Positions 4,065-30,928 of a DNA stretch of 64,000 nt are shown here, in pieces (within the stretch, counting starts at the first letter, position 1; every line of letters starts with the position of its first letter). This DNA is from Candidatus Buchananbacteria bacterium. GTDB lineage: Bacteria; Patescibacteriota; Patescibacteriia; Buchananbacterales; UBA6539. A program made the translations under genes and the position numbers. A model generated the notes under the pieces. That model was not told the origin of the DNA. It searched no databases and saw only the letters and a program-made list of their open reading frames with translations. Location of the stretch: NCBI GenBank assembly GCA_013359225.1, contig JABWCG010000002.1, positions 113,470 to 177,469 on the forward strand. The letters are read 5' to 3'.

Positions 4065-4535
4065 TCAGGTAAAAATAATCAGCGCCAAAAAAGTTAAAAG
4101 AAATATTGCCTGAATTGTCATGCCGGCTTTAAAAGGCACTGTCAGACCTTTTAAGGCGTAGTGCAGGTTCCAGTGGATCGAAAAATATTTTTCAAGCAAT
4201 TTAGTCTTGGTGAGAACATAAATGCCCTGGAGAAAGTCCGGCATAATTGTTCCGGCAACTGCGAAAAGCGCCACCCAAAAGTTTTGAATCTGCCCGGTTA
4301 AGTATAGGCTGGTGAGGCTGATAGTCATTACAATAACGTCAATGGCGGTTAACTTTTTTAGCAGTAAAACCTCATGCGCCGAAAACTTGAATTTTTCTTT
4401 TACCAGAGTGGTGTCTCCATGGGGGATCATATCAAGCAGGAAATGAGAAAAAAATCCCAGCACAAAAGCAAGGCCGATATTATTAGTTTGTTCGGCGATT
4501 AAAACTCCGGCGGCCGAGTGAACAGTAAGAAACAT
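4065..4535 (-). CDS. Membrane-bound metal-dependent hydrolase-like protein (YdjM/DUF457-like), tandem paralog 1
   Basis: 'HAAAGVLIA...SHFLLDMIPHGD' has conserved His/Asp residues inside the membrane helices. It is paralogous to the adjacent ORF. Confidence 0.4.
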   Translation of the reverse strand: MFLTVHSAAGVLIAEQTNNIGLAFVLGFFSHFLLDMIPHGDTTLVKEKFKFSAHEVLLLKKLTAIDVIVMTISLTSLYLTGQIQNFWVALFAVAGTIMPDFLQGIYVLTKTKLLEKYFSIHWNLHYALKGLTVPFKAGMTIQAIFLLTFLALIIFT

Positions 4536-5008
4536 TAGATCAGCGGTTTAATGATGACAATCAAAGCAATAAGCTGGGTGAGGTGCCCCAGAATAAAAGA
4601 GATATTTTTTTCCGGCGAGTAGTGGACAAGATGATGAAAGTCGTTGAATTTTTTAAGAAAACGGTTTTTGGGGAATAAGAAACTTGATGCCTGGAGAATG
4701 TCAGGTAGGATTGATCCAATTACCCCCCAGATAATCGGTCCGGTAATAAGGTGAATATTGTTAGTTAAAAGTGCCGCGACAATAATGACGGCAACACAGA
4801 TTTCAAAGTAGACTAGGGCGACGATTTTGTTAAAGTATTTTCTTCGTAATGTTTTGGCGTTGTGGCCTTTAGAATCGATATTGGCGTCGGCATGTGGCAT
4901 CATGTCCAGGAAAAAGTGGGAAATGAAGCCGACAATGAATGAAATCAGTGAGTGATTAATGGTGCTGCCAATTAAAACCCCGGCGGCAGCATGGATTGAC
5001 AAGTACAT
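4535..5008 (-). CDS. Membrane-bound metal-dependent hydrolase-like protein (YdjM/DUF457-like), tandem paralog 2
   Basis: 'HAAAGVLIG...SHFFLDMMPHAD' has the same architecture as its neighbour. Its stop overlaps the start of the downstream paralog. Confidence 0.4.
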   Translation of the reverse strand: MYLSIHAAAGVLIGSTINHSLISFIVGFISHFFLDMMPHADANIDSKGHNAKTLRRKYFNKIVALVYFEICVAVIIVAALLTNNIHLITGPIIWGVIGSILPDILQASSFLFPKNRFLKKFNDFHHLVHYSPEKNISFILGHLTQLIALIVIIKPLI

Positions 5009-8279: not shown

Positions 8280-9802
8280 TAGTTTTGGCTAGCAGACTTA
8301 ATTCTTCCTTTAGCGGCTCCGGTTTTAACAAATTGGAGCCAGTCTCGGCTGGGGCCCCTGCGATTTTTATCGGTGATGATATCAACGACATCACCGTTTT
8401 TTAATTTAGAGTCCAGACTGGCAATTTGATTATTAATTCTAGCACCGGCGCAGTGGTCGCCGATCCAGCTATGAACGTGGTACGCAAAATCAACCGGTGT
8501 CGCGCCTTCGGGCAGATCGATAACGTCACCCTTGGGTGTAAAAACAAAAATCCGGTTTTGGAAAAAATCAATCGTTAAAGATTGTAGGTACACTTCATTG
8601 TCTTGGATTTCTTTTTGCCATTTAACTAAATCTTCAATCCAGGTTAATTTTTTTGGCAACGTGTAGCCAGGGTCGCCGATTTTTTTATTTGTCTGGCGAC
8701 TTTCTTTTTCTTTGTATTGCCAGTGGGCGGCGATACCGTTTTCTGCCTGGTCGTGCATTGCCGGAGTACGAATTTGAAACTCTACAATTTTTCCTTCAGT
8801 ACAAAAGACAGTGGAATGTAGTGATTGATAGCCATTTGGTTTTGGTTGAGCAATATAATCTTTAATCCGGCCCGGCAATGGTTTCCATAATTTATGGATA
8901 ACTCCAAGTGCTTGGTAGCAGTCCTCAACTGTTGGTACAATGATTCGCAGTGCTACTAGGTCGTAAATTTTTGAAACGTCCCCATTGTAATGAGGTTTTT
9001 GTAGTTTAAGATAGAGACTGTAAAGCCGTTTCTGCCGCCCATGGATGGAAGTGGTTTTTATTTTTTGAGCCGCTAATTCTTTTTCAACGATTTTAATCAC
9101 CCGGTTAATGTATGCCATTTTCAGTTCAATTTTTGGCAAGATATCTTTTTTCATCCATTCATATTTTTGTGGGTAAACATAAGGAAAAGATAAATCTTCA
9201 AGTTCACCTTTAATTTGTCCCATACCGAGACGATTGGCGATTGGTGCATATATTTCTAGGCTTTCCTGGGCAATTCTTTTTTGTTTTTCTTTGGGCAGTG
9301 CTTCCAAGCTACGCAAGTTATCTAGGCGATCGGCCATTTTAATGAGAATAATACGAATATCTTGGGCCATTGAAATAAACATCTTTCGTAGATTCTCGGC
9401 ATATTTTTCCATTCCGCGGTATTTAATGATACCAAGCTTACTAATGCCGCCGACTAGTTTGGCAATATCTTCGCCGAAGTTTTTTTCCACTTCAACCAAG
9501 CTGTATGTTGTGTCTTCCGGAACGTCATGGAGCAGAGCGGCAATGACAGTGTCTTGGTCAAGGCCCAGTTTAGCAACGGTTATGGCAGTTCGCAGAGGAT
9601 GATTAATATAGGGCTCTCCCGACTTTCTATTTTGTGTCTTATGAGCTTCTTCGGCAAATTCATAAGCGAGTTTAATCAAGTCAAAATCATAATTGGCGGG
9701 CGCTCGTTTGAGATAAGGGAAAATAGGCACTCGGCTAGTGACTTTATGGTTTTCTTTAAGAATTCGAAATAGTTCTTCAATTGGTAATTTGTTGCTAGTC
9801 AT
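8276..9802 (-). CDS. rel: Small bifunctional (p)ppGpp synthetase/hydrolase of the Rel/SpoT family (HD, synthetase and TGS domains, no ACT domain)
   Basis: It has the HD motif 'HDVPEDT', the RelA_SpoT synthetase region and a TGS domain. I chose the start at [10 protein letters not shown]. Confidence 0.85.
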
Positions 9803-9857
9803 GGCATTTTTTAGTATAATAATTGTAAAGGAATTAGATATAAAAATCAATTTTTCT

Positions 9858-10859
9858 ATGAGTTTACCTTTTTTTAGTTATTCAACATTACCGTTGGTGT
9901 TATTAGTGGTCTTGGTAGCCATTATTTTTTTTATGTGGCGTAAGGGTGGAGCAAGTGGCCCATATAATGCTAGTGGTAATGCAACTCCAACTTTAAATCA
10001 GTATGCTAAAGATTTAACCAAAATGGCCGCCGACGGAAAGCTTGATCCGGTGATTGGTCGCAATGAAGAAATTGAACGCGTGATTCAAGTGTTGAGCCGC
10101 CGGACTAAAAATAATCCTGTCTTAGTCGGAAAGTCCGGCGTCGGCAAAACCGCCATCGCTGAAGGTTTGGCACAAATGATTGCCGGAAAGAAAGTGCCAA
10201 AAATTTTAGAAAATAAGAAAGTGCTCGCCCTAGATCTGACCGGTATTATCGCCGGCACAAAGTATCGGGGAGAATTTGAAAAACGGATTAAACAGATTGC
10301 CGACGAGATTACCGCTGCGAAGCGCAGCATCATTTTATTTATTGATGAGATTCATACTTTGGCGGAAGCCGGTGGGGCTGAGGGAGCAATTGACGCCGAT
10401 GACATCTTAAAGCCGGCCTTAGCGCGTGGTGATCTGCAGGTAATTGGCGCAACCACTGCTGAAGAATACAAAAAATTTATTAAAAAAGATGTGACCCTTG
10501 ATCGACGGTTGCATCCAATTTTAGTTGATGAGCCGACCAAGGAAGAAACCGTTAAAATTTTAGAGGGAATTAAGCGCAAGTATGAGCAGTTTCATAAAGT
10601 GAACATTACCAAAGAAGCAATCTTAGCGGCGGTTCATTTGGCTGAACAGCATATTAAGAATAAATCATTTCCAGATAAAGCAATTGATTTAATGGATGAA
10701 GCGGCGTCGAAGGTCAGCATTGAAAATGTTACTGATGAATCAACTGCTAAAAAAACAACGTCCCAAAAGAGGCTGGCGGATAAAAAATCATGGCCGCAGG
10801 TTGGCGTAGCGGAGGTGCAGGAGGTAATGCAGGAGTGGCAGGAAAATAAATTTTTATAA
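9858..10859 (+). CDS. Membrane-anchored ClpA/ClpB-type AAA+ ATPase with a single D1 module; no N-domain, M-domain or D2
   Basis: There is an N-terminal TM helix ([17 protein letters not shown]). The protein matches ClpB D1 ([40 protein letters not shown]; Walker [11 protein letters not shown]) and ends just after the D1 small domain. Confidence 0.6.
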
Positions 10860-10874
10860 ATTGTTACTATTTTA

Positions 10875-11495
10875 ATGTCTAAGACTAAATCGGCACTATT
10901 AAACACCCTCGGCTTGTTCTTTTTATTTTATGGCGTTTATGCTATTGATTATTCGGTATATCGTGATCATTGGTCGTGGGTTTTTTGGATTTGTTATATC
11001 GGCTTGGTAATTATGGGTGCGGCAATATTATTGCGGAATTCAATGGTAATTATCAGTCAATTATATATTTTAACTATTCCACTATTAATTTGGCTGACTG
11101 ATTTTTTTTCGCGCGTTTTTACCGGACACCATTGGTTTGGAACCACAGATTATTTCTTTGAAGAATTATTATTACCGGCCCGGATTATCTCGCTGGAACA
11201 TTTTTTCCTTTTGCCCTTGGGGTATGTGGCATTTTGGGCTTTGGGAGCAAAAGCTAAGGGGGCGTGGGTCATTAGTATTATTGAGGTGGCAGTCATATAT
11301 TTTATGGTCAGATTATTCACCGACGCTGTCCAAAACGTTAACTGTGTTTTTGAGTCGTGCTTTCCTTCAGTTCCGTCCGACGCGCTTTATCCAATTCGTT
11401 GGTTTGCAATAATTCTAGGGATGATTTTAATTACCTGGTTTTTAAATTTCATGGTACTTTATTTAACTAAAAAAATTAACTATAATAAAAAATAG
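10875..11495 (+). CDS. Hypothetical polytopic membrane protein
   Basis: It has 5-6 predicted TM helices and no recognisable family. Confidence 0.4.
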   Translation: MSKTKSALLNTLGLFFLFYGVYAIDYSVYRDHWSWVFWICYIGLVIMGAAILLRNSMVIISQLYILTIPLLIWLTDFFSRVFTGHHWFGTTDYFFEELLLPARIISLEHFFLLPLGYVAFWALGAKAKGAWVISIIEVAVIYFMVRLFTDAVQNVNCVFESCFPSVPSDALYPIRWFAIILGMILITWFLNFMVLYLTKKINYNKK

Positions 11496-11520: not shown

Positions 11521-12396
11521 ATGAACCAACAAAACGATTTGCAAACTAAAGTAAAATCTCGGGTAAGCAGCAAAGTGGTCCTGGCGGGTATTGCCATTGC
11601 CACGCTGGTTGGTGTTTCGCTGGTTACTGCCAGTCTGGTAACTCCGGCCGGTACCGGAAATTTTTATGCCGGCAGCGGTGATATCAAACTCCCGCCGCCA
11701 AAGCCGGCTTGTCCGGTGGGAGGTTATGCGGAGAATGGAAAGTATGTTTATATTTGTGAAGAGGACGGTACGGCTGCTCGACATACGTGTGATAAAAGAT
11801 TAGAAGATGCTAATGGTGTTGAGTTGTATCGCTGTTTAGATTCAAGTGGCAATACAGACAATGATCAGGTGTGTTGCTTGGAGGAAGCTCCTACGTGTCC
11901 GGCGAATTATTCCATTTGTGGCAAAGACGCTGGTGCTGTCTGTTGTAGTGCTAATGAAACTTGTGAATCTAAAAAATGGCCACCGGTTGTGGGGGATACA
12001 ATTTATTTTTGTAAACCAAAAACGTGTCCCGATCCGGCGAGGCCAAAATTGTGCACCGGTAGCACCAATAATGCTTGTTGTGCAAGTACCGATAGCTGCG
12101 GCACGAGCGGCATTGGTATTGCATACTGTAAGCCCACAGGCTGCACTGATCCAAACTGTGGTGATATCTGTTGTACTGATAATGAAATTTGTGTGACCAA
12201 AACTGGCACACCTCCAGTTTGTCAGCCAAAAGATCCTTCATCTTGTGATACCGATGGGGTTGATAATGTCCCTGGTAATAATGATGATCAAGAGTATTGT
12301 CAGGGAAGGGGTGAGTATGCCGAAAGAAAACGTTGTTGTCCGGTCCGTACTTGTTTTGTAATGCCTAATGGATATCCGCAATGTAAGACAAATTAA
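11521..12396 (+). CDS. Cysteine-rich secreted or anchored protein with a distinctive N-terminal leader (TM helix followed by TPAGTGNFYAGSG)
   Basis: It has about 40 Cys residues and a CCx5-6C motif repeated five times. The N-terminal 60 residues are shared with the product of 13547..14629. Confidence 0.5.
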   Translation: MNQQNDLQTKVKSRVSSKVVLAGIAIATLVGVSLVTASLVTPAGTGNFYAGSGDIKLPPPKPACPVGGYAENGKYVYICEEDGTAARHTCDKRLEDANGVELYRCLDSSGNTDNDQVCCLEEAPTCPANYSICGKDAGAVCCSANETCESKKWPPVVGDTIYFCKPKTCPDPARPKLCTGSTNNACCASTDSCGTSGIGIAYCKPTGCTDPNCGDICCTDNEICVTKTGTPPVCQPKDPSSCDTDGVDNVPGNNDDQEYCQGRGEYAERKRCCPVRTCFVMPNGYPQCKTN

Positions 12397-12404
12397 ATTT
12401 GTTT

Positions 12405-12450
12405 TAGAAATAGAGCCCGCTAAAGCATAGTGCTTAGCGGGCTCTTTGGT
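12405..12450. terminator. Bidirectional rho-independent terminator between convergent genes
   Basis: There is a perfect hairpin GAGCCCGCTAAAGCA/TGCTTAGCGGGCTC, followed by a T-rich run. Confidence 0.6.
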
Positions 12451-12462
12451 TTTCGGGGGGGG

Positions 12463-13374
12463 TTATTTAAGCAAAGCCCATTTGACAGGCCCTGCAAGCT
12501 CTTTGGCAGTTTGGACAAGAAAGACCTTGTCGCGAATGCTTAGTTCCTGAAGGTTGATCCAGGGAAACAAGTTGACGAACTTTATTCCAAGCTCATCGAG
12601 GTTCTCCTGGGTCCAGGCTTGCTGGTTGAACTGAGTGAGTGCTTCTTGTTGTGGCGGGGTCAAATCGTTGGGAATTGATTCCCAGACTTTGTAGTACTGA
12701 GAAGCTTGGTTGCTGATGATATTGGTGCTGACGCCGATGTCTTGGAGCGCTTGGAGGCGCTTGATGATGTCGGCGGTGTTGCCGACTGTCAGCCAGGTGA
12801 ACCCGGCACCAGAAATTTCGGGGCCGTTTTCCCATTGCTTCTCTCCGTACTTGACGGAGGTGTAGTAGCAACGAACTGCCGTCCAGCGCCCATCCTGATT
12901 GACTTCAGTAACCGTTGACAGCTCGTAGTCGCCAAGTTTCGGCGAGTTGAACGCGATGTTCATGCCGTTAAGGTCGCACCAGGCCACCCAGACCGTTTCC
13001 GTTGTCGAAGCTTTGACTTTCTCTTGTTCGTTGGCGATGACAACTGCCAACGGCTTAGGTTCCGGGTAAATCGGATATGCGTCCGAGCATTCCCCGGGTT
13101 TCGGATTCGGGTTGCCGCGACCGCAACGGATCTTGGATTCACGGTGCGAGTCCAGCAGGAGTGCGGTACCCCAGCCAAGCAGTTCAACGGCTTGCGGGTT
13201 TTTGGTTTCAGCCTTTGTGACAGCGGCTGTTAACTGTTTGACGAACATTTCGTCGGAGATGTTGGTTGGGCGCTCGGCAGCAAAGCTTGCCAAGCATAGC
13301 GTGCAGGTGAAACCTGCAAGAACTAACGTCTTCATCTTAAATATCCTTCCCCATGGAAAGTGGCTTGTAACCAT
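12463..13374 (-). CDS. Secreted hypothetical protein encoded by a compositionally atypical, GC-rich gene
   Basis: It has the signal peptide MKTLVLAGFTCTLCLASFAA. A sampled ~76-nt stretch of the gene is about 62% GC, against about 40% for the neighbouring sequence. I recognise no domain. Confidence 0.5.
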   Translation of the reverse strand: MVTSHFPWGRIFKMKTLVLAGFTCTLCLASFAAERPTNISDEMFVKQLTAAVTKAETKNPQAVELLGWGTALLLDSHRESKIRCGRGNPNPKPGECSDAYPIYPEPKPLAVVIANEQEKVKASTTETVWVAWCDLNGMNIAFNSPKLGDYELSTVTEVNQDGRWTAVRCYYTSVKYGEKQWENGPEISGAGFTWLTVGNTADIIKRLQALQDIGVSTNIISNQASQYYKVWESIPNDLTPPQQEALTQFNQQAWTQENLDELGIKFVNLFPWINLQELSIRDKVFLVQTAKELAGPVKWALLK

Positions 13375-13477
13375 AATTCACAACAGGTGAATAATGGTTT
13401 TCAAGACCGTTGTAGGGTACATTTTCTATAGTATATATTATACTATATATTCATTTTTTTGTCAATAGTAAGACAAT

Positions 13478-13516
13478 ATAATTAAAAACACCTGCTAGTT
13501 ATAGCAAGTGTTTTTA
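13478..13516. terminator. Hairpin terminator downstream of the 13547..14629 gene
   Basis: ACACCTGCTAGTTATAGCAAGTGTTTTT lies in an AT-rich spacer. Confidence 0.4.
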
Positions 13517-13546
13517 AACGACTAAAATTTATTGTTGATTATATTA

Positions 13547-14629
13547 TTATAAATCGCCGCAACTAGAAAAATTACAATTAATGTAATAGCAGGCCTTGTT
13601 GTCCGGATTGTTGGTGCCGCGAGTTTTTTCATCAACGTGAACTAACTGGGTTGAGCCGGCTTGGCCACAAATATTTTTTTCGGTGACATTGCATTCGCGT
13701 AAGACATTTAGGCCGGAAGCGGCACCCCTAATTTTTGTTTCGGCGGTAGCAGCGTCGCCAGTGCAGCCGCTACCGGCTGAAGTGGCAGCGCCGGCACAAG
13801 CGATATCTGCAGCTTGTCCGGTGTCGTGCGCGCTTTTGTTTTCATTGTTCCAATCGCTGAAGGGGACAAATTTATCGTCTTCATCACCGCGGTAACTGCT
13901 GTTGAGTACGCAGCTAGCTGGCAGTGATTCGCACTTGGGTGGTGCGCCGTACATTTTGCTGTACATTTTTGCAACCTTTCTTAAGAAGGTGTGAACGCCG
14001 GTAACATCTTTACCGCCGATACCAACCGTGTAAAGCTTTCGCGCTGGATCAGCAGAAGTGTTGGCATTGTTATCGGTTGCTGCGCCGTCATAATTTCCGG
14101 CGCTGTAAACAGGGCAGGCGCAATCAATGTGGACTGCAATCATGAACTTAAATTGTTTTTCCATATCAGTTTGGCTGATGTTGCCGTCGTTTAGCGCATC
14201 AATCAATCCGGCGCGTAGACTAATGACATCACTTAAGGCGGAGCTTTTTTCAATATCAGTGGCATTACAATCGCAAGAGCTTTCATCTCGTTCGCCTTGT
14301 CCGGCAATGTCTGGGCAAAATGCATACCAATTAGTGTTAGGATCGTTGTCAGTTGCTCGAGCTTTGCAATTGTCTCTGGTAGTATGATCGCCATTATCGC
14401 CAAATAATCCTAACCCCGTAACGCACCAACCAGAAACGGGGATTGGGATATTACTGAGATTAATGTTGCCGCTGCCGGCGTAAAAATTACCAACTCCTCC
14501 GGGAGTTAAAAGAGAAGCAGTCACCAGAGAAGCGGCGGCAATGATTATGATTATTACTGAGGTAATAACAACCCTATTATTAACTTTAGTTGTTGAAGTT
14601 ACCTTTAGTTTTGGTTTTTTGGAAATCAT
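13547..14629 (-). CDS. Cysteine-rich secreted or anchored protein; a paralogous leader (TM helix followed by TPGGVGNFYAGSG) with a different Cys-rich body
   Basis: Its N-terminus '...SLVTASLLTPGGVGNFYAGSGNINL' nearly matches that of 11521..12396. The body is Cys/Asp/Asn-rich. Confidence 0.5.
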   Translation of the reverse strand: MISKKPKLKVTSTTKVNNRVVITSVIIIIIAAASLVTASLLTPGGVGNFYAGSGNINLSNIPIPVSGWCVTGLGLFGDNGDHTTRDNCKARATDNDPNTNWYAFCPDIAGQGERDESSCDCNATDIEKSSALSDVISLRAGLIDALNDGNISQTDMEKQFKFMIAVHIDCACPVYSAGNYDGAATDNNANTSADPARKLYTVGIGGKDVTGVHTFLRKVAKMYSKMYGAPPKCESLPASCVLNSSYRGDEDDKFVPFSDWNNENKSAHDTGQAADIACAGAATSAGSGCTGDAATAETKIRGAASGLNVLRECNVTEKNICGQAGSTQLVHVDEKTRGTNNPDNKACYYINCNFSSCGDL

Positions 14630-14689
14630 ACATATTTCCTTAATTTGTTAATACTGTTTTAAGTATATCATAATCTTGACAAATTTAAA

Positions 14690-15140
14690 AAAGTATGCTA
14701 AGGTGTCTTTGTTGATGCTGGGGAAACCCTGCAAACTTGGAAAAATACCTTGTGGCTTTGCTCAAGGTATTTTTCTTTTTGTGATAATTTTTTGACAATT
14801 TTCTTTTTTTAAGCTAAATACTACTTGTATCTTTCTTCCTGGTCTTTGGAGCAATCCTTGGCCGGGAGGATTTGCGGATACGCATTTGCCCCACTGGGCG
14901 TGCGGAAGTCAACGTAAGCGACCGGGATTTTCAGGTCGTCGAAACTTCCACATCACTCATGCGGACGGGCAACCCGCTCGGAAGAAAATCGGCCCATCGG
15001 CGGCAGCATTAACTGGCTCAAATTCGGTTAACGTTGCCGCCACTATTTATTATCGGTTGCCAGATTCATTCCATTTTGTTATGATTTGTTTGCGGCTTGA
15101 AAGAAGCACCCTAGCATCAACAAAGTTTCGGGGTTTAACT
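14690..15140 (+). ncRNA. Candidate structured non-coding region, closed by a ~17-bp long-range helix and containing several strong hairpins
   Basis: 14706-14722 (CTTTGTTGATGCTGGGG) is complementary to 15110-15126 (CCCTAGCATCAACAAAG). Internal hairpins include GGCGGCAGC...GTTGCCGCC and a GNRA-loop stem (UGCUGGGGAAACCCUGCA). Its GC content is higher than the AT-rich flanks, and there is no credible ORF. Confidence 0.25.
14739..14781 (+). terminator. Intrinsic-terminator-like hairpin on the plus strand
   Basis: GAAAAATACCTTG-TGGCTTTGCT-CAAGGTATTTTTC is followed by TTTTTGTG. No plus-strand protein gene lies upstream, so it may end a small RNA. Confidence 0.3.
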
Positions 15141-15436
15141 TTCTTTCAGCCGCTTTTGTTTTTACTTTTTATTGAAGCGGGGGATTGACAAAATTATTTA
15201 GGCATGCTATACTGTATTTAGATAGATAAGATAGGTTTCTAAGCAAAGCACCTATCTTTTTAAATTAGCCCCAAGATAAACCGCGGGCGAGAAAATAAAA
15301 ACAAAAACAAGTAAATTTCCGACTTTGGCTGCGTTTGATGCAAGCACTGTTTTTAACTCGGTCGTTATCAGTCGGATTTTTTTGTACCTTAAAAAATTAA
15401 ATAGTTTTTAAAAAACTAAAAAATAAAAACAAAAAT

Positions 15437-15577
15437 ATGAATGCTCAAGAACTGTCTCAGGCACAGGATATGGATTTTGACATCACCCGTACGTTCGCGG
15501 TGCTGTCGGCGACGCTGATCTTGCCAGTCTATTTGGCCCTGTCGGTCGTCTCATATTCTATGGCCGCAATCTTATGA
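15437..15577 (+). CDS. 46-aa hydrophobic micro-protein (small ORF), GC-rich
   Basis: It runs from ATG to TGA with one TM helix (MNAQELSQAQDMDFDITRTFAVLSATLILPVYLALSVVSYSMAAIL). It is below the cutoff of the ORF track, and a strong terminator follows it. Confidence 0.25.
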   Translation: MNAQELSQAQDMDFDITRTFAVLSATLILPVYLALSVVSYSMAAIL

Positions 15578-15599
15578 CATAATAATTTTGTTTAGGATG

Positions 15600-15635
15600 C
15601 AAAAAATCCCGCGTTTGTTAGCGGGATTTTTTGCG
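15600..15635. terminator. Bidirectional terminator shared by topA (minus strand) and the small ORF (plus strand)
   Basis: AAAAAATCCCGC-GTTTGTTA-GCGGGATTTTTTG. Confidence 0.6.
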
Positions 15636-15642
15636 TTTGTTT

Positions 15643-17868
15643 TTATCGTTTGTATTTACATTCGCGACTGCTACACTTGATTGAATCTTTTGGTCCATGG
15701 ACTAGAATTGAACCGCAGTCTGGGCATTTTTCTGGCTCACTTTGTCCTTCTTCAATATAAGGTTTGCCCCAGAGCGCGTTTTTACAATCAGGGTACTGAT
15801 CACAGGCGTAGAAGAATCCGCGACGCGACCGTTTACCGACAATTTTACCTTTGCCGCAAGCAGGACAAGTGCCGAACGTTTGGGCCGCTTCTTTTTTGAT
15901 GTATTTACATTTTGGATAGTTTGAACAGCCGACAAATTCGCCGTATCTTCCTTTTCGCTTTACTAACGGATGTTCACATTCCGGACATTTTTCGCCGGTT
16001 TCAACTGGTCCTTGCGGTTCGCCGGTTTCACCATCAAGCGGCTTGGTATTTTTACATTCCGGATATCCGGTGCAGGCTAAAAATTTTCCGTAGCGGCCGA
16101 CTTTAATAACCATTGGTTTGCCACACTTATCACATACCTCGTCGGATGCTTGTTCGGTGAGTTCTTTTTTGGTCAGCTCGCTGTCTTTTTTGTCTAGGTT
16201 TTCTTTGAACGGTTCCCAGAAATTTTTAATAACCGGCTGCCATTCTTTTTTACCTTCCGCCACTTCGTCCAAATCATCTTCCATGTGGGCGGTAAACTGG
16301 TAGTCAACAATTTTAGGGAAGTGTTCGACGAGTAAGTCATTAACCAGAAATGCCATTTCAGTCGGCTTTAATTTTTTTTCTTCCTTTTCAACATAGCCGC
16401 GCTCTTGCACAGTTGAAATAGTTGGAGCGTATGTTGACGGTCGGCCAATGCCGTATTCTTCCAATGCCTTAACCAAGGCTGCTTCCGTATAGCGCGCAGG
16501 TGGTTGGGTAAAATGTTGTAACGGCTTTAGTTCAACAAGGTTCACTGTTTGATTTTCGGAGATATCAGGCAAGATGTTTTCTTTGGTACTGGTTGGATAA
16601 ATTTTTAGAAAGCCGTCGAACTTGATAATTGAACCGGTTGAACGAAAGGTGTAGGGAGTTTTTTGGGCTTTGATGTCGACAGTAGTGTTGTCCATAACGG
16701 CCTCGGCCATCTGACTACTAATCGCGCGTTGCCAGATAAGTTGGTAAAGTTTAAATTGGCGGTCATTGAGATATGGTCGAACGGACGCTGGATCATTTTT
16801 AGCCAAAGTCGGTCTAATGGCTTCGTGAGCTTCCTGGGCTAATTTTGATTTTGCAGAATATTTCTTAATTCCGGCGTGGTACTGCTTGCCAAGCTGAGTA
16901 GTAATATATTCAGCAGCTTCGTCTAAAAATTTCGTTGCTAGATTCAGTGAGTCGGTTCTCATGTAGGTAATCAAACCAACTGAGCCTTCTGATCCAAGTT
17001 CAATACCTTCATAGAGCTGTTGCGCTAGCATCATAGTCTGTTTGGCGGAAAAACCCAGCCGTGAGTTGGCAGCCTGTTGTAAGGTAGAGGTAGTAAACGG
17101 TGGCAGCGCTTTTTTCTTGGTTTGCTTTTTTTCAACCTTTTCAATGACATAGGTGGCCTGTTCTAAATCTTTTAGGATCTTATTGGCTTGCTCCTCATTA
17201 CTGATTTCTAATTTATCAATAACCTTGTCGTCAATCTTATTAAGTTTTGATTCAAAGTTTTGATTATTGGCATTAAAAATGCTTTCAATGCTCCAGTATT
17301 CTTGGGCGTTGAAAGCCTGAATTTCTCGTTCCCGTTCGACGATGAGCCGGACCGCGACTGACTGAACTCGGCCGGCTGACAATCCGCGAGCAACTTTTTT
17401 CCATAAAAATGGGGAAAGTTGATAGCCGACCAGTCGGTCCAAAACGCGCCGGGCTTGTTGGGCGTCAACCAGGTGCAGATCAAGCTCGCGCGGATTTTTT
17501 AGCGCCTCTTTGATTGCGTCTTCGGTGATTTCATGAAAAACGATTCGTTTAATTTTATTTTTTGGGGTTTTAAAAATATTGACCAGGTGCCAAGAGATCG
17601 CTTCACCTTCGCGGTCTTCGTCGGTGGCGAAGTAAATATTTTGGGCTTTGTCGGCTAACTTTTTTAATTCAGTGGCTCGTTTTTTTGATTTAACCGGAAT
17701 GACGTACTGCGGGTCAAAATTATTTTCAATATCAACGCCAAGCTTGCTTTTTGGTAAATCTCGAATATGACCAAAAGAGGATTCGATTTTATAATCGGAT
17801 CCCAAAAATTTTGAAATTGTTTTTGCTTTGGTTGGCGATTCGACAATCACCAAATTTTTGATAGCCAT
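15643..17868 (-). CDS. topA: DNA topoisomerase I with C-terminal zinc-ribbon repeats
   Basis: It has a TOPRIM N-terminus (LVIVESPTKAKTI), the type IA core and four C-terminal C4 Zn ribbons. Confidence 0.9.
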   Translation of the reverse strand: MAIKNLVIVESPTKAKTISKFLGSDYKIESSFGHIRDLPKSKLGVDIENNFDPQYVIPVKSKKRATELKKLADKAQNIYFATDEDREGEAISWHLVNIFKTPKNKIKRIVFHEITEDAIKEALKNPRELDLHLVDAQQARRVLDRLVGYQLSPFLWKKVARGLSAGRVQSVAVRLIVEREREIQAFNAQEYWSIESIFNANNQNFESKLNKIDDKVIDKLEISNEEQANKILKDLEQATYVIEKVEKKQTKKKALPPFTTSTLQQAANSRLGFSAKQTMMLAQQLYEGIELGSEGSVGLITYMRTDSLNLATKFLDEAAEYITTQLGKQYHAGIKKYSAKSKLAQEAHEAIRPTLAKNDPASVRPYLNDRQFKLYQLIWQRAISSQMAEAVMDNTTVDIKAQKTPYTFRSTGSIIKFDGFLKIYPTSTKENILPDISENQTVNLVELKPLQHFTQPPARYTEAALVKALEEYGIGRPSTYAPTISTVQERGYVEKEEKKLKPTEMAFLVNDLLVEHFPKIVDYQFTAHMEDDLDEVAEGKKEWQPVIKNFWEPFKENLDKKDSELTKKELTEQASDEVCDKCGKPMVIKVGRYGKFLACTGYPECKNTKPLDGETGEPQGPVETGEKCPECEHPLVKRKGRYGEFVGCSNYPKCKYIKKEAAQTFGTCPACGKGKIVGKRSRRGFFYACDQYPDCKNALWGKPYIEEGQSEPEKCPDCGSILVHGPKDSIKCSSRECKYKR

Positions 17869-24452: not shown

Positions 24453-25178
24453 ATGCTCAAAATCGGACATCGGGGTGCGAAAGCCTACGCTCCGGAAAAC
24501 ACTATTGCTTCTTTTAAGAAAGCGCTTGACCTTGGCGTTGACATGGTTGAATTTGACGTTCGGATTACTAAAGACAAACATCCGGTGGTTATTCACGATA
24601 ACCGGTTGCGCCGCCTGACGAAGGAATTTATGCGCGTTAATCATCTGACTTTATCTCAGATTAAGAAGTTGCGCGTCAAAGAAACAGAGCAGGTACCGAC
24701 GCTTGGTGAGGTGCTCAGTGTCATTGACAATAAGGTTGGCATTTTAATTGATTTGAAGGTTAAGGGTGCGGCCCAAATTGTAGTGCAGACTCTGCGGGAT
24801 TATAAAATTGATTTTGATAATGTCATGATTTCGTCGGTGCATCCGTCTGAACTGCGCTTAGTTGAACAATTAGAGCCCGATATTACCACAGCACTTATCT
24901 TTCGGTCAAACAACGCATCAAACTTTTGGTTGGTAATGGATTTTTTGGCCGTCTTGTTCTTGCCGGTTACTAAATATTACATTTCTTGGTTGGTTCGTAA
25001 TGCAAACGCCAACTACTTGAACATCAATCATCGTTTGCTGAATGAAAAAAAGGTCAAAATGTTTAAAAAACAAGGAATAAAAATTTGCGCCTGGACCGTC
25101 AACAGCAAGCGCAAAATTGAATATCTTAAAAAAATAGGAATTGACGGCATTATAACTAATTATCCAGATCGCCTATGA
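24453..25178 (+). CDS. Glycerophosphodiester phosphodiesterase
   Basis: The GDPD motif is 'IGHRGAKAYAPENTIASFKKALDLGVDMVEFDVRITKDKHPVVIHD'. I took the start at MLKIGHRG to avoid the tRNA overlap. Confidence 0.8.
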   Translation: MLKIGHRGAKAYAPENTIASFKKALDLGVDMVEFDVRITKDKHPVVIHDNRLRRLTKEFMRVNHLTLSQIKKLRVKETEQVPTLGEVLSVIDNKVGILIDLKVKGAAQIVVQTLRDYKIDFDNVMISSVHPSELRLVEQLEPDITTALIFRSNNASNFWLVMDFLAVLFLPVTKYYISWLVRNANANYLNINHRLLNEKKVKMFKKQGIKICAWTVNSKRKIEYLKKIGIDGIITNYPDRL

Positions 25179-25789
25179 AAATTTTTAAAAAAAATCATTA
25201 TCCGGCCTATTTGGAGGATGATTTATCCGTCGGCAAACAAGCTGCAATTTTTGTTTGGGAAATTTTTAAAGTGGTTGTCATTTCGTTGGCGATCATTATT
25301 CCGGTTCGTTACTACCTGATTAAGCCGTTTTATGTCAAAGGGGCATCAATGGAGCCGACATTCTATGATCATGAATATCTGATTATTAATGAACTAAGCT
25401 ACCATCTTGGTAGCCCGGTCCGCGGCGATGCAGTCGTTTTTAAATATCCGATGGACCCGACTCAGTATTTTATCAAACGAGTTATCGGTTTGCCGGGAGA
25501 AACGGTTAAAATTGCCGACGGTGAAGTTACCATTATCAATAGTGCTAATCCGCAGGGGGTGACGCTGGATGAGCGGTATCTTGACAGTACTGCAAAAACA
25601 ATCGGCGATATTGAAGTAACGCTCGGGCCCGATGAATATTATTTGCTTGGCGATAATCGTTTGGCTAGTCTGGACTCTCGGGTTTTTGGGCCGGTTAAAG
25701 AAGATTTTATTGTCGGTAAAACGCTTTTCCGTGGTTGGCCAATCAGTCGAGCGGGCCTTATAACCAATAATTTAGAATATAATTTATAA
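25175..25789 (+). CDS. lepB: Signal peptidase I
   Basis: It has the S26 boxes 'GASMEPTF' and 'GDNRLASLDSRVFG' and an N-terminal TM anchor. Confidence 0.85.
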   Translation: MKIFKKNHYPAYLEDDLSVGKQAAIFVWEIFKVVVISLAIIIPVRYYLIKPFYVKGASMEPTFYDHEYLIINELSYHLGSPVRGDAVVFKYPMDPTQYFIKRVIGLPGETVKIADGEVTIINSANPQGVTLDERYLDSTAKTIGDIEVTLGPDEYYLLGDNRLASLDSRVFGPVKEDFIVGKTLFRGWPISRAGLITNNLEYNL

Positions 25790-28051: not shown

Positions 28052-30928
28052 ATGAATAGTAAAAGACTGTTTAATAACTTCCTAAAGATTTTTGAAACTA
28101 AAGCTACCATGGTGGTTTGCGCCGTGGTAGTTTTTGTTTTTGTTTTTGCGCCGGCGGCGTTTGCCTTAGAAACCGGTCTGCAGTATGGTACAGCATCCGG
28201 GCTTGGTACCCAGGATTTGCGGGTAAGTATTATGAAGATTATCCGGATTATTTTGGGATTTGTCGGGATTATTGCCATTTTGATTACGCTTTATGCCGGG
28301 TTTATTTGGATGACGTCCGGCGGCAATGCCGATAAGATTGATACCGCCAAGCGGACTCTACGCAATGCCGTCATTGGTTTGGTGATTATTTTTTCTGCGT
28401 TTGCCATTGTCAGCTTTATTATCGGAGCGCTTGAAGGCGCGCTGACTCAGCCGGGTTTGCCGGGCGGCCAGCCGCCGGATACCGGCTGTGTTAACTGCGG
28501 CCACTTGGGCGGCGGCATCATTGAAAGCGTTTATCCGACACCATTCCAGCGCGATGTTCCTCGTAATACCAATATTCAAGTTACTTTTAAAGTGCCGATG
28601 CAGCCAAATACCATTATTGACGGCGCTCCAGCCAGCTGTTCAGTGAGCAGCCCCTGCCAGGGTGAATTAGTTGCTGATAACGTTAAGATTTTTAAAGCGG
28701 ATGAGGATGAAGACGATGATAAGCTGGCTGCAGACGAAGTGGTGGTTACTAGCACCGACGGTAAAACGTTTATTATGGATGTTATTGATTATTTAGGTGA
28801 CTCGGCTAATAAAACGTGGTATTCGGTCAAATTGGATAATGATATCTTGAAAGATAATGGCCAGCTGGCTTTTCCGGGAGTTGACGATTTCTTCTTGTGG
28901 CAGTTTGAAGTTGGCACTTTCTTGGACCTTGATCCGGTTGAAGTGTTAAACGTTTTTCCGGCCCCTGATGACGCCAGTGACGACTATGATCAAACCAGTC
29001 CGCAGGCCGCCTTTGCGACATTGACAGTGCTTTCAAATCCGATTGCGGAAGTGGTGGCTGACGTTGATACGCCGGTCGTTACTGCCGGTACCACCGCTGC
29101 CTCGGTTAGTGGCACCTATAATGGATCATTTAACGGCAATGTGCGGGTAACGATTAATCCCGGTTCAAACACTGCTGAAGTTTTTTGGGAAACCGGTAGT
29201 GCAGACAACAACTCGGCGGCAGCAATTAATAATAATACGATTGGTTTAGGCAGTGGTTTACTGTTAACTTTGAGCGACGGGTATGCTGCCGGCAATCAGT
29301 GGACAATCACTGTTACGGCTGCGCGGCCGGCTGATACGTTACGAATCGGTTCCCGGCTTTATACATTTGTATCCGGCACCGCGGCGACCAATCAAATCCA
29401 AATTGGTAATACCTTGACCGTTACTGCCGGCAACATTGTCTCGGCGCTGGCGGACAATCTTGATGTTGAGGCCTCAAATACCGGTCCGTCTATTACCGTC
29501 ACCGCCAAGTTGGCCGGTAGTCAGGGCAACAGTATTGTGGTCCAGACCCGCGGCACCTGGTCTGATATCTGTAGTGGCAGTCCGCTGGTGTGTAATGCGA
29601 ACCAGAATAATTTGGCGCGTGGTGCAAATCAGGTTTTAACTCCGACGACTAACGATGCTCCTGACCAACCAAAAAATAGTATTATCAGTATTGATTTTAA
29701 TGAACCAATTGATGTTTCAAAAGTTAGTAATGCAACGATGATTGTCCAATACGAGGCTACACCCGGCAATTGGCAGACGGTTAATGGAGTGTATTTGTTT
29801 AGCAACCAGTATAAGACTGTTGAATTTTTGTCGGAGAATGCCTGTACCGACGTTTTTGGCAATCCAGTGATTAATTCCTGCGGCGAAGGCATCTTTTGTC
29901 TACCAACCGTTTCGCCCGATCCCGATCCGTACCAGGCAACTCATTATCGGGTAATTGTTAAGGCCGGGCTATTAAAAGAATGTGCTAGTAATTCCGACTG
30001 TTCAGACCCCAACTTCAACACGTGTGTTGCAACCGGTTCGGGTCAGGCCTGTCAGGGAACCTTTGATGCAGTTGAAGCGTTTTACCCAGAAACGCGGGAT
30101 CTTAACGCCAATGGCATTACGGATGCCGCCAACAATTCATTCAACGGTAATAAAGATGAGTACGTCTTAAACGGCCGGTCGTATGGCAAGGCTGACGGTC
30201 CGGCTGAACAAAGCGGCCAGGCCGAGTATAACCTTAACGATGGTGTTACCGCTAATCTTGGTGACGATTTAGTTTGGTATTTCTATATTAATAAGACACT
30301 TAATTTGGTTCCGCCAAAAGTGTCAACAATGGGGCCAACCATCAACCAGAGCGCCATTAGTCTGACCGAAGCGCCAAATGTGACTTTTGATAAATTGGTT
30401 AGCAGCAGCAGCTTGAAGCCGGGCAATAACTACCGTGATGGTTTTTGCTACTGTCAAAACGATTCAGAATGCAATCAAACCGCTGGAGAAACGTGTGATA
30501 CGATGCGCAACAAATGTGTTAATGCCAATGATGATGCCCAGACTTTCTGTGAACAGGATAATGAGTGTGAAACTAATCGTTGTGACAATAAGAAGTACGT
30601 TACTTTAATTGATCGTGCCACACCGAAAGTTGGTTGGTGGACTACGAAAGAAGATTTGGATACCGGTACGCCGCGCGATGGTTATGGTGACCAGACTAGG
30701 GGTTCGATCCGACACACTATCTTTAATGAAATCACGAATTACGGTGCGGAATTTGGTTCGGGGGTTAAAGATATCTATCAGAACTGTTACTTCCCGGGCG
30801 GTGGACCGGATGTTGGTCCGCTACCAAACTCTGATTGTCCGGTAACAGTTAACTTGCCGTACTGTTGTAATGGTGTGGCCTATAGTCAGGCTGATTGGGA
30901 AAACACGTCGTGTTTTACTGGGTATTAG
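28052..30928 (+). CDS. Large (958 aa) surface protein. The N-terminus is a TrbC/VirB2-like two-helix pilin module; the body holds beta-rich, Ig-like extracellular domains and a Cys-rich C-terminal region.
   Basis: After the signal peptide comes 'GTQDLRVSIMKIIRIILGFVGIIAILITLYAGFIWMTSGGNADKIDTAKRTLRNAVIGLVIIFSAFAIVSFIIGAL'. That is two hydrophobic helices separated by a short polar loop, with the I-W-M-T-G motif as in VirB2/TrbC pilins. The N-terminal ~130 residues are paralogous to those of the giant ORF downstream. Confidence 0.55.
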   Translation: MNSKRLFNNFLKIFETKATMVVCAVVVFVFVFAPAAFALETGLQYGTASGLGTQDLRVSIMKIIRIILGFVGIIAILITLYAGFIWMTSGGNADKIDTAKRTLRNAVIGLVIIFSAFAIVSFIIGALEGALTQPGLPGGQPPDTGCVNCGHLGGGIIESVYPTPFQRDVPRNTNIQVTFKVPMQPNTIIDGAPASCSVSSPCQGELVADNVKIFKADEDEDDDKLAADEVVVTSTDGKTFIMDVIDYLGDSANKTWYSVKLDNDILKDNGQLAFPGVDDFFLWQFEVGTFLDLDPVEVLNVFPAPDDASDDYDQTSPQAAFATLTVLSNPIAEVVADVDTPVVTAGTTAASVSGTYNGSFNGNVRVTINPGSNTAEVFWETGSADNNSAAAINNNTIGLGSGLLLTLSDGYAAGNQWTITVTAARPADTLRIGSRLYTFVSGTAATNQIQIGNTLTVTAGNIVSALADNLDVEASNTGPSITVTAKLAGSQGNSIVVQTRGTWSDICSGSPLVCNANQNNLARGANQVLTPTTNDAPDQPKNSIISIDFNEPIDVSKVSNATMIVQYEATPGNWQTVNGVYLFSNQYKTVEFLSENACTDVFGNPVINSCGEGIFCLPTVSPDPDPYQATHYRVIVKAGLLKECASNSDCSDPNFNTCVATGSGQACQGTFDAVEAFYPETRDLNANGITDAANNSFNGNKDEYVLNGRSYGKADGPAEQSGQAEYNLNDGVTANLGDDLVWYFYINKTLNLVPPKVSTMGPTINQSAISLTEAPNVTFDKLVSSSSLKPGNNYRDGFCYCQNDSECNQTAGETCDTMRNKCVNANDDAQTFCEQDNECETNRCDNKKYVTLIDRATPKVGWWTTKEDLDTGTPRDGYGDQTRGSIRHTIFNEITNYGAEFGSGVKDIYQNCYFPGGGPDVGPLPNSDCPVTVNLPYCCNGVAYSQADWENTSCFTGY

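Follow-up and report, generated by a model that had tools for sequence, protein, structure and literature searches.

Sortases, exosortases, rhombosortase and myxosortase have been found or confirmed through the pairing of a signal with its enzyme, and almost all known examples of such signals are C-terminal. In Bacillus subtilis, tapA-sipW-tasA is reportedly a case in which SipW is encoded beside its substrates TasA and TapA. Patescibacteria rely on cell-surface contact with their hosts, and their surface biology is largely unannotated. The locus described here lies in a stretch of 64,000 nucleotides (hereafter the window) from Candidatus Buchananbacteria bacterium (assembly GCA_013359225.1, contig JABWCG010000002.1, positions 113,470 to 177,469 of the forward strand). 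Two of its genes, A and B, encode unrelated cysteine-rich proteins with a shared N-terminal leader, and a gene for a multi-helix membrane protein, M, stands directly upstream of A (Table 1). It is proposed, at what we would call an even chance, that this leader is a lineage-specific, modular signal-anchor and sorting tag that is recognized by M.

C-terminal sorting signals have a tripartite architecture (PMC11980579; PMC3237569). Recently, a serine-lipobox (SLP)/Skillet-1 system was predicted, in which an operon couples a polytopic Lipocone protein to a downstream gene whose product has an N-terminal signal ending in G-S and variable extracellular domains (Burroughs, Aravind and co-workers, eLife 2025, PMC12419801). 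By analogy, it is the closest published logic to M and the leader. Neither NUM25708 (protein M) nor Buchananbacteria appears in its supplements, and no description of the leader or of M was found in the literature.

Anatomy of the shared leader

An original prediction, made from the sequence alone, held that A and B are different Cys-rich proteins with a common N-terminus. The open reading frame (ORF) list confirms both genes at their coordinates, and BLASTP between the two proteins gives a single significant segment (residues 34-119 of A against 35-119 of B, E=2e-10). The segment owes its similarity to LVTASL(V/L)TP.G.GNFYAGSG(D/N)I, beyond which the two proteins are unrelated. The further claim that about 55 residues are nearly identical is overstated for the whole leader, in which 23/53 residues match, but it stands for the helix end and the motif, where 19 of 24 residues are the same. 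The first ~30 residues are alike only in character, with a basic box followed by a hydrophobic run. GNFYAGSG and SLVTAS are confined to genes A and B in a six-frame motif scan of the window, and a hidden Markov model (HMM) built from 25 leaders scores these two ORFs at 87 and 72 bits, the next-best window ORF remaining below 5 bits.

At the DNA level, the leader cores of A and B are 71% identical. Their 24 codons specify 19 identical residues, 8 of them through identical codons; because the other 11 of these 19 residues use different codons, the match between the two leaders has been kept by selection on the protein rather than by recent copying of DNA. A recent 5' duplication or gene conversion as the source of the leader in A and B is ruled out by this divergence at synonymous sites.

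Every leader contains the basic box TK(V/T/I)K(V/I)xx(K/R). In the six leaders that were measured (those of A and B in the window, A in the related contigs L006 and L014, and both A and B in L016; other related contigs are labeled in the same way), the Pro follows the last basic residue at a distance of 22-23 residues. The residues before the helix read ...SSK and then VVLAG in A, and ...NNR and then VVITS in B. The motif that follows has the consensus GxG(N/K)FYx(G)SG(D/N)(I/L) and leads into a Pro-rich or low-complexity linker. Among 17 leaders, G46, F48 and Y49 never vary and S52 is conserved in at least 90%; L018 lacks the motif Ser. In the AlphaFold model of B (predicted local distance difference test, pLDDT, 76), the motif is a linear element outside the folded body, since the model places a helix at residues 18-39 and disorder, with pLDDT <50, at residues 38-58.

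The leader does not fall into the prepilin, lipobox or Tat classes of signal. It had been predicted to be neither a type IV prepilin signal nor a lipobox, and this holds for the wider set. Prepilins have Gly at -1, just ahead of the hydrophobic segment, and Glu at +5 (G|FTLIE-like), and none of the 25 leaders has either residue there. A lipobox, [LVI][ASTVI][GAS]C, closes a short h-region with an invariant Cys, whereas A has no Cys before residue 64, B none before residue 69, and no leader contains one; gene C and the small lipoproteins nearby have ordinary signals. No RR pair of the kind found in the twin-arginine (Tat) motif is present in any leader, the n-regions being rich in Lys and Thr (TKVKSRVSSK, KLKVTSTTKVNNR). 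Curated NCBIfam and Pfam signal families (SipW-cognate, YSIRK, KxYKxGKxW, sortase/exosortase-type) gave no relevant match in an hmmscan, at E<=1, of A, B, M and the protein encoded between A and B, C.

A long but ordinary Sec signal peptide has also to be considered, which type I signal peptidase (SPase I) would cut after T-A-S to leave the motif as a mature N-terminus, for example a wall- or S-layer-binding peptide. Small residues are present at plausible -3/-1 positions of such a candidate site (T-A-S, with L next, in the window; A-L-S, with M next, in L016), and an SPase I gene is found in the window (a LepB-like ORF at 25175-25789). However, one lineage (SALTAT-L) has Thr as the candidate -1 residue, and the uncharged span of the leader measures 22-23 residues, compared with roughly 12-15 in clear signal peptides of the same genome; the clear Sec signal peptides of the window, those of gene C and of the ORFs at 56314 and 58114, reach only about half the length of the leader. 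This explanation is considered quite unlikely.

Occurrence and exchange of the leader

The leader is rare and clade-restricted, yet conserved across genomes, as concluded from an exhaustive HMMER search with the leader profile that returned 16 genuine carriers among 1.84e9 representative proteins. The search gave 18 matches at E<=1e-3, of which two are translated repeats; each of the genuine ones begins with the leader, and their bodies are those of the A family, of the B family or of a third, Cys-rich type (protein P0018). Full-length searches gave three relatives of A and seven proteins matching B (one of which is B itself), mostly metagenomic, and no relative of B was found in the contigs of 185,579 species genomes scanned with a narrower B alignment. 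Orthologues of both A (P0001-3 and P0011-15) and B (41-73% identical) have conserved the leader. A motif present in A and B only, without conservation across genomes, would have refuted the original prediction; this is rejected, as these orthologues and further cargos carry it as well. Only 2-4 leader genes are seen per genome fragment.

The leader is a portable, autonomous module that has been exchanged among cargos. At least five unrelated cargos carry it: A-type, B-type, the third type (P0018 in L013; also in L011 and L018) and two further proteins of L016, one of 251 aa (dockerin/BP74_N) and one of 437 aa. The exchange can be followed in DNA. L006 and L010 are 81% identical from M across the spacer to exactly nucleotide 145 of the following gene and are unrelated from there on, with an A-type cargo in one and a B-type cargo in the other. 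L013 and L010 show the same pattern, with homology ending after 137 nt of the next gene and a third-type body. In these cargo swaps, DNA homology thus ends at codon 45-48. At the protein level, P0019 and P0022 share 40 of 43 leader residues, and their whole alignment is only 35% identical.

Moreover, leader variants track the genome rather than the protein family. On L016, an 8.5-kb contig from a more distant relative, M, a B-type gene and C are followed on the opposite strand by an A-type gene and the genes for the 251-aa and 437-aa proteins, and all four cargos have one lineage-specific leader variant, TKTK..KTV - helix - LS(M/I)LP...G.YA(T/S). Leaders of unrelated bodies inside L016 are 53-63% identical to each other, whereas orthologues in the window and L016 have leaders that are 24-31% identical and bodies that are 48-51% identical. 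Both leaders of L018 have F-S where relatives have F-Y. Paralogous leaders that had split before speciation would be equally distant within and between genomes. In a permutation test with five genomes, the same-genome pairing was reached by 2-3 of 120 permutations (the observed pairing and the swap of the close relatives G1 and G2), and without the close relative G2 the observed pairing came top of 24. The A and B leaders of L016 have 25 identical residues and 11 identical codons. Conversion between leaders of the same genome is not recent, because their synonymous sites are strongly diverged.

Related contigs show M followed by an A-type gene in one and by a B-type gene in another, and in the window A and B are convergent, with leader DNAs that form inverted repeats. 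An invertible, shufflon-like switch could produce such a picture if the leader DNAs were inverted recombination sites and inversion of the 11.7-14.5 kb segment swapped the A and B bodies behind the promoter of M. The contigs in question differ by 19% in DNA, however, and so represent different species and not two states of a population; the repeat arms are 72% identical with a longest exact run of 11 nt, and no recombinase or invertase was noticed beside the cluster, though not every ORF was annotated. The switch is very improbable, and an active invertible segment was rejected at a repeat identity of 72%.

Two related clusters are described here for their gene order. In the closest relative (sample ERZ27315056), contigs L004 (3409-3591) and L017 (5112-5759) appear to abut, judged by protein ends; when joined, they hold an AAA gene, M, A and A2 on one strand, and C, B and topA on the other. 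The extra tandem A paralogue (P0002-like) has its own leader, making a third leader gene that is absent from the window. L018 (CAYIBK010000004.1, a GTDB representative titled uncultured Gammaproteobacteria bacterium) contains M, a third-type cargo, a lipoprotein, the N-terminal module of C and a B-type gene. This cluster is the same as in Buchananbacteria-like contigs and has 86% DNA identity to L013 over 1.75 kb, and the taxonomic title looks doubtful.

Protein M and its linkage to the leader

A co-occurring peptidase or transporter had been suggested as a partner of the leader, and M is a concrete candidate for a partner that may interact with it. M homologues (37-61% identity) are located directly upstream of a leader gene in 10/10 distinct bacterial loci (window, L003, L004, L006/L007/L009, L008, L010, L011/L018, L013, L014/L015 and L016), with gaps of -17 to +78 nt. 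The cargo behind M is A-type at 6 loci, B-type at 2 (L010 and L016) and third-type at 2 (L013 and L011/L018). Because the cargo varies, the linkage of M is to the leader and not to a particular protein.

No match to M was found in Pfam or NCBIfam. When nine M homologues were searched against Pfam at E<=10, no exosortase/archaeosortase, rhomboid/rhombosortase, CPBP/myxosortase, prepilin peptidase or LspA was recovered, and NCBIfam likewise gave none of these. An AlphaFold2 (AF2) model of M, obtained from a 7-sequence alignment, has a pLDDT of 70, with conserved loops <50, and a Foldseek search of the PDB with this model found only generic helix bundles (E>=0.9); with a model of this quality, a distant fold relationship could be missed. 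Alignment of nine bacterial homologues revealed the invariant residues C40, Q62, D76, R103, S106, H109, S134, N154, C157, S161 and C162, most of which would lie on the outer face according to the positive-inside rule, on the same side as the motif of the leader. Assignment of M to the Skillet-1 Lipocone proteins was rejected: hhalign of the M alignment (A8) with a MAFFT alignment of 30 Skillet-1 domains gave a probability of 0.3%, and neither ExxQ (H3) nor DxxD (H4) is among the invariant residues of M.

A further M homologue (39% identity) is encoded at 9995-10630 of L019 (CAZPUY010000004.1, titled Candidatus Woesearchaeota archaeon). It keeps C40, Q62, D76, S106, H109, N154, C157 and C162, with Lys in place of R103. 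Its neighbors are archaeal-type genes, for a TFS-like zinc ribbon and a RadB/KaiC-like ATPase, so the M family reaches beyond the bacterial clade and is not always paired with a leader.

These data also bear on another explanation, in which the leader is a generic type-II signal anchor, neighboring genes trade 5' ends by recombination or gene conversion, and M is a syntenic housekeeping membrane protein, so that no dedicated partner exists. In favor of this explanation, recombination has been documented where leader and cargo meet, A and B lie in inverted orientation 2 kb from each other with a 76-nt imperfect inverted repeat, L019 has M and no leader gene, and some leader genes have no M nearby. 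A generic anchor would need, however, neither an invariant G-x-F-Y...S beyond the helix nor a conserved basic box or a fixed spacing of 22-23 residues. Conversion that left synonymous sites of same-genome leaders heavily diverged and their amino acids intact cannot be recent, and the leader is present on the gene right after M at all ten bacterial loci despite differing bodies. A generic anchor is considered unlikely on this evidence, though plausible enough to be taken seriously.

Cargo bodies and gene C

The body of A contains 30 Cys in a protein of 291 aa, arranged in CC...C...C modules, and has no Pfam or NCBIfam match; B and the neighbors of the two genes likewise match no family of either database. 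B has 16 Cys in 360 aa, 14 of which are invariant in 13 homologues, as is the motif S-x-H268-x-x-G-x-A-x-D275 ... E312 ... H331-x-D333. We take this motif (SxHxxGxAxD ... E ... HxD) to be the zinc-ligand signature of LAS/M15 peptidoglycan peptidases, whose Zn ligands are H-x(3-6)-D and a C-terminal H on the LAS fold. Sub-threshold matches link B to the Pfam M15 families PF08291, PF13539, PF05951 and PF02557 (best E 0.046) and to the PHROG 'endolysin' family phrog_894 (E 0.006). No PDB sequence match was found, and a Foldseek search of PDB and BFVD with the B model was not significant, with VanXYc, LysECD7 and beta-lytic protease only among the noise. On sequence grounds, B is tentatively assigned as a LAS/M15-like peptidoglycan peptidase.

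Gene C, located between A and B, fuses two modules that relatives encode as individual genes, in some cases on opposite strands. B-type genes have the N-terminal module (motif CG.GNPNPKPGECSD) as a companion (window, L001, L014, L016 and L018), and the C-terminal module is found elsewhere as a lipoprotein of ~115-135 aa encoded convergently to the M-adjacent cargo (L003, L006, L013, L014 and L018). Although the adjacency of B and C is conserved, each is probably transcribed on its own, because a terminator-like hairpin with a 16-bp stem directly after gene B (13517-13482, - strand) is followed by a perfect TTGACA-17-TATAAT promoter before gene C (13465-13437, - strand).

The association of these modules with particular cargos could fit a polymorphic surface-effector system. 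M and the leader would then be the constant part for delivery and tethering, the cargos (for example, the M15-like B) exchangeable effectors, and gene C and its two separable halves their cognate partners or immunity proteins, with the motif marking the recombination junction as VENN does in CdiA. Such a system is decidedly improbable as an account of the locus: no toxin or immunity family was recognized in Pfam and NCBIfam scans, the fold assignment of B is not significant, cargo diversity is small, and B orthologues are well conserved rather than hypervariable. What it does account for is a constant N-terminus joined to a variable C-terminus at a sharp junction, the N-terminal module of C that travels with B-type genes, the small lipoprotein that accompanies the M-adjacent cargo, and the LAS/M15 motif and weak endolysin-family matches of B. 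It overlaps the proposal of a sorting tag read by M rather than excluding it.

Proposed roles of the leader and M

From the anatomy of the leader and the conservation of M, we infer a topology, a contact between the two and a processing of the leader. If the leader is a signal-anchor and sorting tag, the Sec machinery would insert it N-in/C-out, and the cargo would be displayed outside on a Pro-rich or low-complexity stalk. The basic box TKxK(V/I)xx(K/R) would remain in the cytoplasm, the Pro would cap the helix at the outer leaflet, and the Gly-rich FY motif would form a flexible, juxtamembrane element at the interface of the outer face. There, M may read the conserved end of the helix together with the motif, and may then either dock the cargo or process it covalently, by cleavage or modification around F-Y-x-G-S-G. 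The autonomy of the tag allows recombination between leader and cargo to place new cargo genes behind it. Catalytic action of M on the motif is considered slightly more likely than plain docking, which explains the data about as well. The lean toward catalysis is due to the enzyme-like conservation of M (invariant Cys, His, Asp, Asn, Ser and Gln, mostly in loops placed outside) and to the fact that, to our knowledge, processing takes place in all known cases in which a tripartite signal is paired with a neighboring polytopic protein.

A dedicated tag for sorting, processing or anchoring, as originally predicted, is supported in hedged form by the conservation of the leader, its presence on at least five cargos, the linear nature of the motif and the co-variation within genomes, with M as its candidate partner. 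The fallback of that prediction, a shared anchoring domain, is equally compatible with the data. Several points weigh against the tag-and-partner proposal. M has no recognizable catalytic fold or family, and cleavage, modification and binding by M are steps that we infer. In the archaeal-looking contig L019, the M homologue is without an adjoining leader gene, and none of the 13 kb encodes a leader. Several B-type leader genes are not adjacent to M, including the one in the window, which is 2 kb away, and no M is present in L001 and L005, where the 11-14 kb of contig are too short to establish absence; the idea that B leaders decay once M is lost was dropped for this reason. The number of leader genes per genome fragment is far below that of classical sorting systems. 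Furthermore, the similarity of leaders within a genome could stem from the demonstrated recombination and not from co-evolution with a partner, and the adjacency of M and leader is partly explained by their inheritance as one block.

The most specific form of the proposal is that M is a new membrane-embedded processing enzyme, with outer-face Cys, His and Asp, that cleaves or covalently modifies G(N/K)FYxGSG (by a lipid, glycan or wall linkage) on a small number of exchangeable surface effectors, including a wall hydrolase, that these episymbiotic Patescibacteria display, as an N-terminal mirror image of tripartite sorting signals. This form is speculative and, on balance, improbable; if true, it would make M and the leader the first sortase-like system at the N-terminus, and a platform for cargo swapping that is specific to the Candidate Phyla Radiation (CPR). 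If M either processes or docks the tag, a new protein family and a new route of N-terminal anchoring would be defined, and a partnership with M would allow a set of 'hypothetical' proteins to be labeled as surface-displayed. If M is not the partner, the locus is still a clean case of modular leader exchange in reduced genomes. The leader HMM provides a searchable tag (leaders score 55-87 bits against a background of <=8 bits), M provides a candidate partner family with invariant residues, and the natural cargo swaps show the autonomy of the tag. The lead is limited by the narrow clade, the few cargos and its basis at the level of sequence.

Coordinates and gene neighborhood

Table 1. Positions of the genes, leader elements and gene C relatives (window coordinates, except where a contig is named)
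Feature	Position	Strand	Description
Gene M (NUM25708.1, HUU49_03770), hypothetical	10875..11495	+	206 aa; six long predicted helices; ends 25 nt before gene A
Gene A (NUM25709.1, HUU49_03775), hypothetical	11521..12396	+	291 aa; leader, Pro-rich linker, 30-Cys body
Leader A, n-region, aa 1-18	11521..11574	+	basic box QTKVKSRVSSK; read directly from the sequence
Leader A, uncharged hydrophobic span, aa 19-41	11575..11643	+	23 residues; ends in SLVTASLVT
Leader A, juxtamembrane motif PAGTGNFYAGSGDI, aa 42-55	11644..11685	+	
Leader core A DNA, inverted-repeat arm against 14456-14531 (leader core B)	11616..11691		imperfect, 76 nt, 72% complementary
Gene C, secreted protein or lipoprotein between A and B	12463..13374	-	303 aa; ordinary short signal peptide
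Gene B (HUU49_03785 = P0004), hypothetical	13547..14629	-	360 aa; leader and 16-Cys body
Leader B, aa 1-56	14462..14629	-	
Leader B, n-region	14573-14629	-	
Leader B, hydrophobic span, aa 20-42	14504-14572	-	
Leader B, motif PGGVGNFYAGSGNI	14462-14503	-	
Relatives of gene C modules	L001 4560-5240; L003 3232-3576; L006 2871-3212		
Relatives of gene C modules	L014 10877-11287 and 11526-12122; L018 11391-11756 and 12398-13063		

The gene preceding M in the window (9738-10859, with a probable true start near 9855) encodes a short membrane-anchored AAA+ protein with an N-terminal transmembrane helix and a single ClpA/B-type D1 module. This gene adjoins the cluster in the window, L001, L004, L008, L014 and L020, and is not beside it in L018. 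Its adjacency may be no more than synteny (RelA-AAA ... topA), or the protein may be functionally linked to the leader through its cytoplasmic basic box. On the other side of the cluster, the 1-kb gap between gene B and topA (14630-15642, GC 0.39) has no convincing ORF. Blocks of 40-180 nt within it recur 3' of topA, in the same place, in L017 and L002 (80-93% conserved) and less strongly in L014 (74-93%), where M, not B, follows. Because the matches span all reading frames and are broken by indels, the gap appears to hold a structured non-coding element tied to topA. No RNA gene was found in the 9-16 kb region by Rfam and tRNA scans (no tRNA or tmRNA), and Rfam at gathering and E<=1 thresholds gave only terminator-like matches at 15537-15671.

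Another N-terminal module on different bodies is shared by two adjacent giant ORFs, at 28052-30928 (958 aa) and 30955-48225 (5756 aa). It consists of a signal-like helix followed by ALETGL.YGT.SGLGTQDLRVS.M..(I/V)R.ILGF.G..AI..., including a second hydrophobic helix. Two tandem paralogous membrane proteins of ~156 aa are encoded at 4065-4535 and 4535-5008 (- strand), and L020 has two genes for proteins of 156-157 aa at the corresponding position (506-1530), one with a faint match to Pfam YdjM.

Comparison with known systems

The layout partly recalls the predicted SLP/Skillet-1 system: M precedes the leader gene, the Ser of the motif is nearly invariant and mostly part of G-S or A-S, and the cargo is variable. 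Unlike the SLP signal, the leader has a full-length helix of 22-23 residues, and its Ser is located ~10 residues past the Pro cap, where the SLP signal has it closing a short h-region. The organisms also differ, with Patescibacteria here and Bacillota, the FCB group and Pseudomonadota in PMC12419801.

With PEP-CTERM/exosortase, PGF-CTERM/archaeosortase, GlyGly-CTERM/rhombosortase and MYXO-CTERM/myxosortase, the leader would share a motif outside, a transmembrane helix and a basic cluster inside, along with recognition by a multi-pass membrane protein, which in those systems is an enzyme that is often encoded nearby. In contrast to these C-terminal signals, the leader is located at the N-terminus as their mirror image, and must therefore double as an export signal. 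M matches none of their enzyme families in Pfam or NCBIfam, and the targets number 2-4 per genome fragment.

The leader resembles SipW-dependent, YSIRK-G/S, KxYKxGKxW, Tat, lipobox and prepilin signals in that these are N-terminal and carry extra conserved motifs by which a few proteins reach a peptidase or pathway of their own. It differs from Tat, lipobox and prepilin signals in having no twin-Arg, no Cys and no Gly(-1)/Glu(+5), and from SipW-type and other specialized signals in that no NCBIfam or Pfam model matches A, B or M. Moreover, M is a 6-TM (transmembrane) protein and not an S26 peptidase as SipW is. CdiA-CT, Rhs and MafB have a similarly sharp junction between constant part and cargo where homology stops, with unrelated C-terminal bodies behind a common N-terminus. 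Here, the constant part is a membrane anchor of only ~55 residues, no toxin or immunity domains are recognized, and cargo families are conserved across genomes. Altogether, the locus varies the familiar theme of a dedicated signal with an adjacent membrane partner, here with an uncharacterized candidate partner family.

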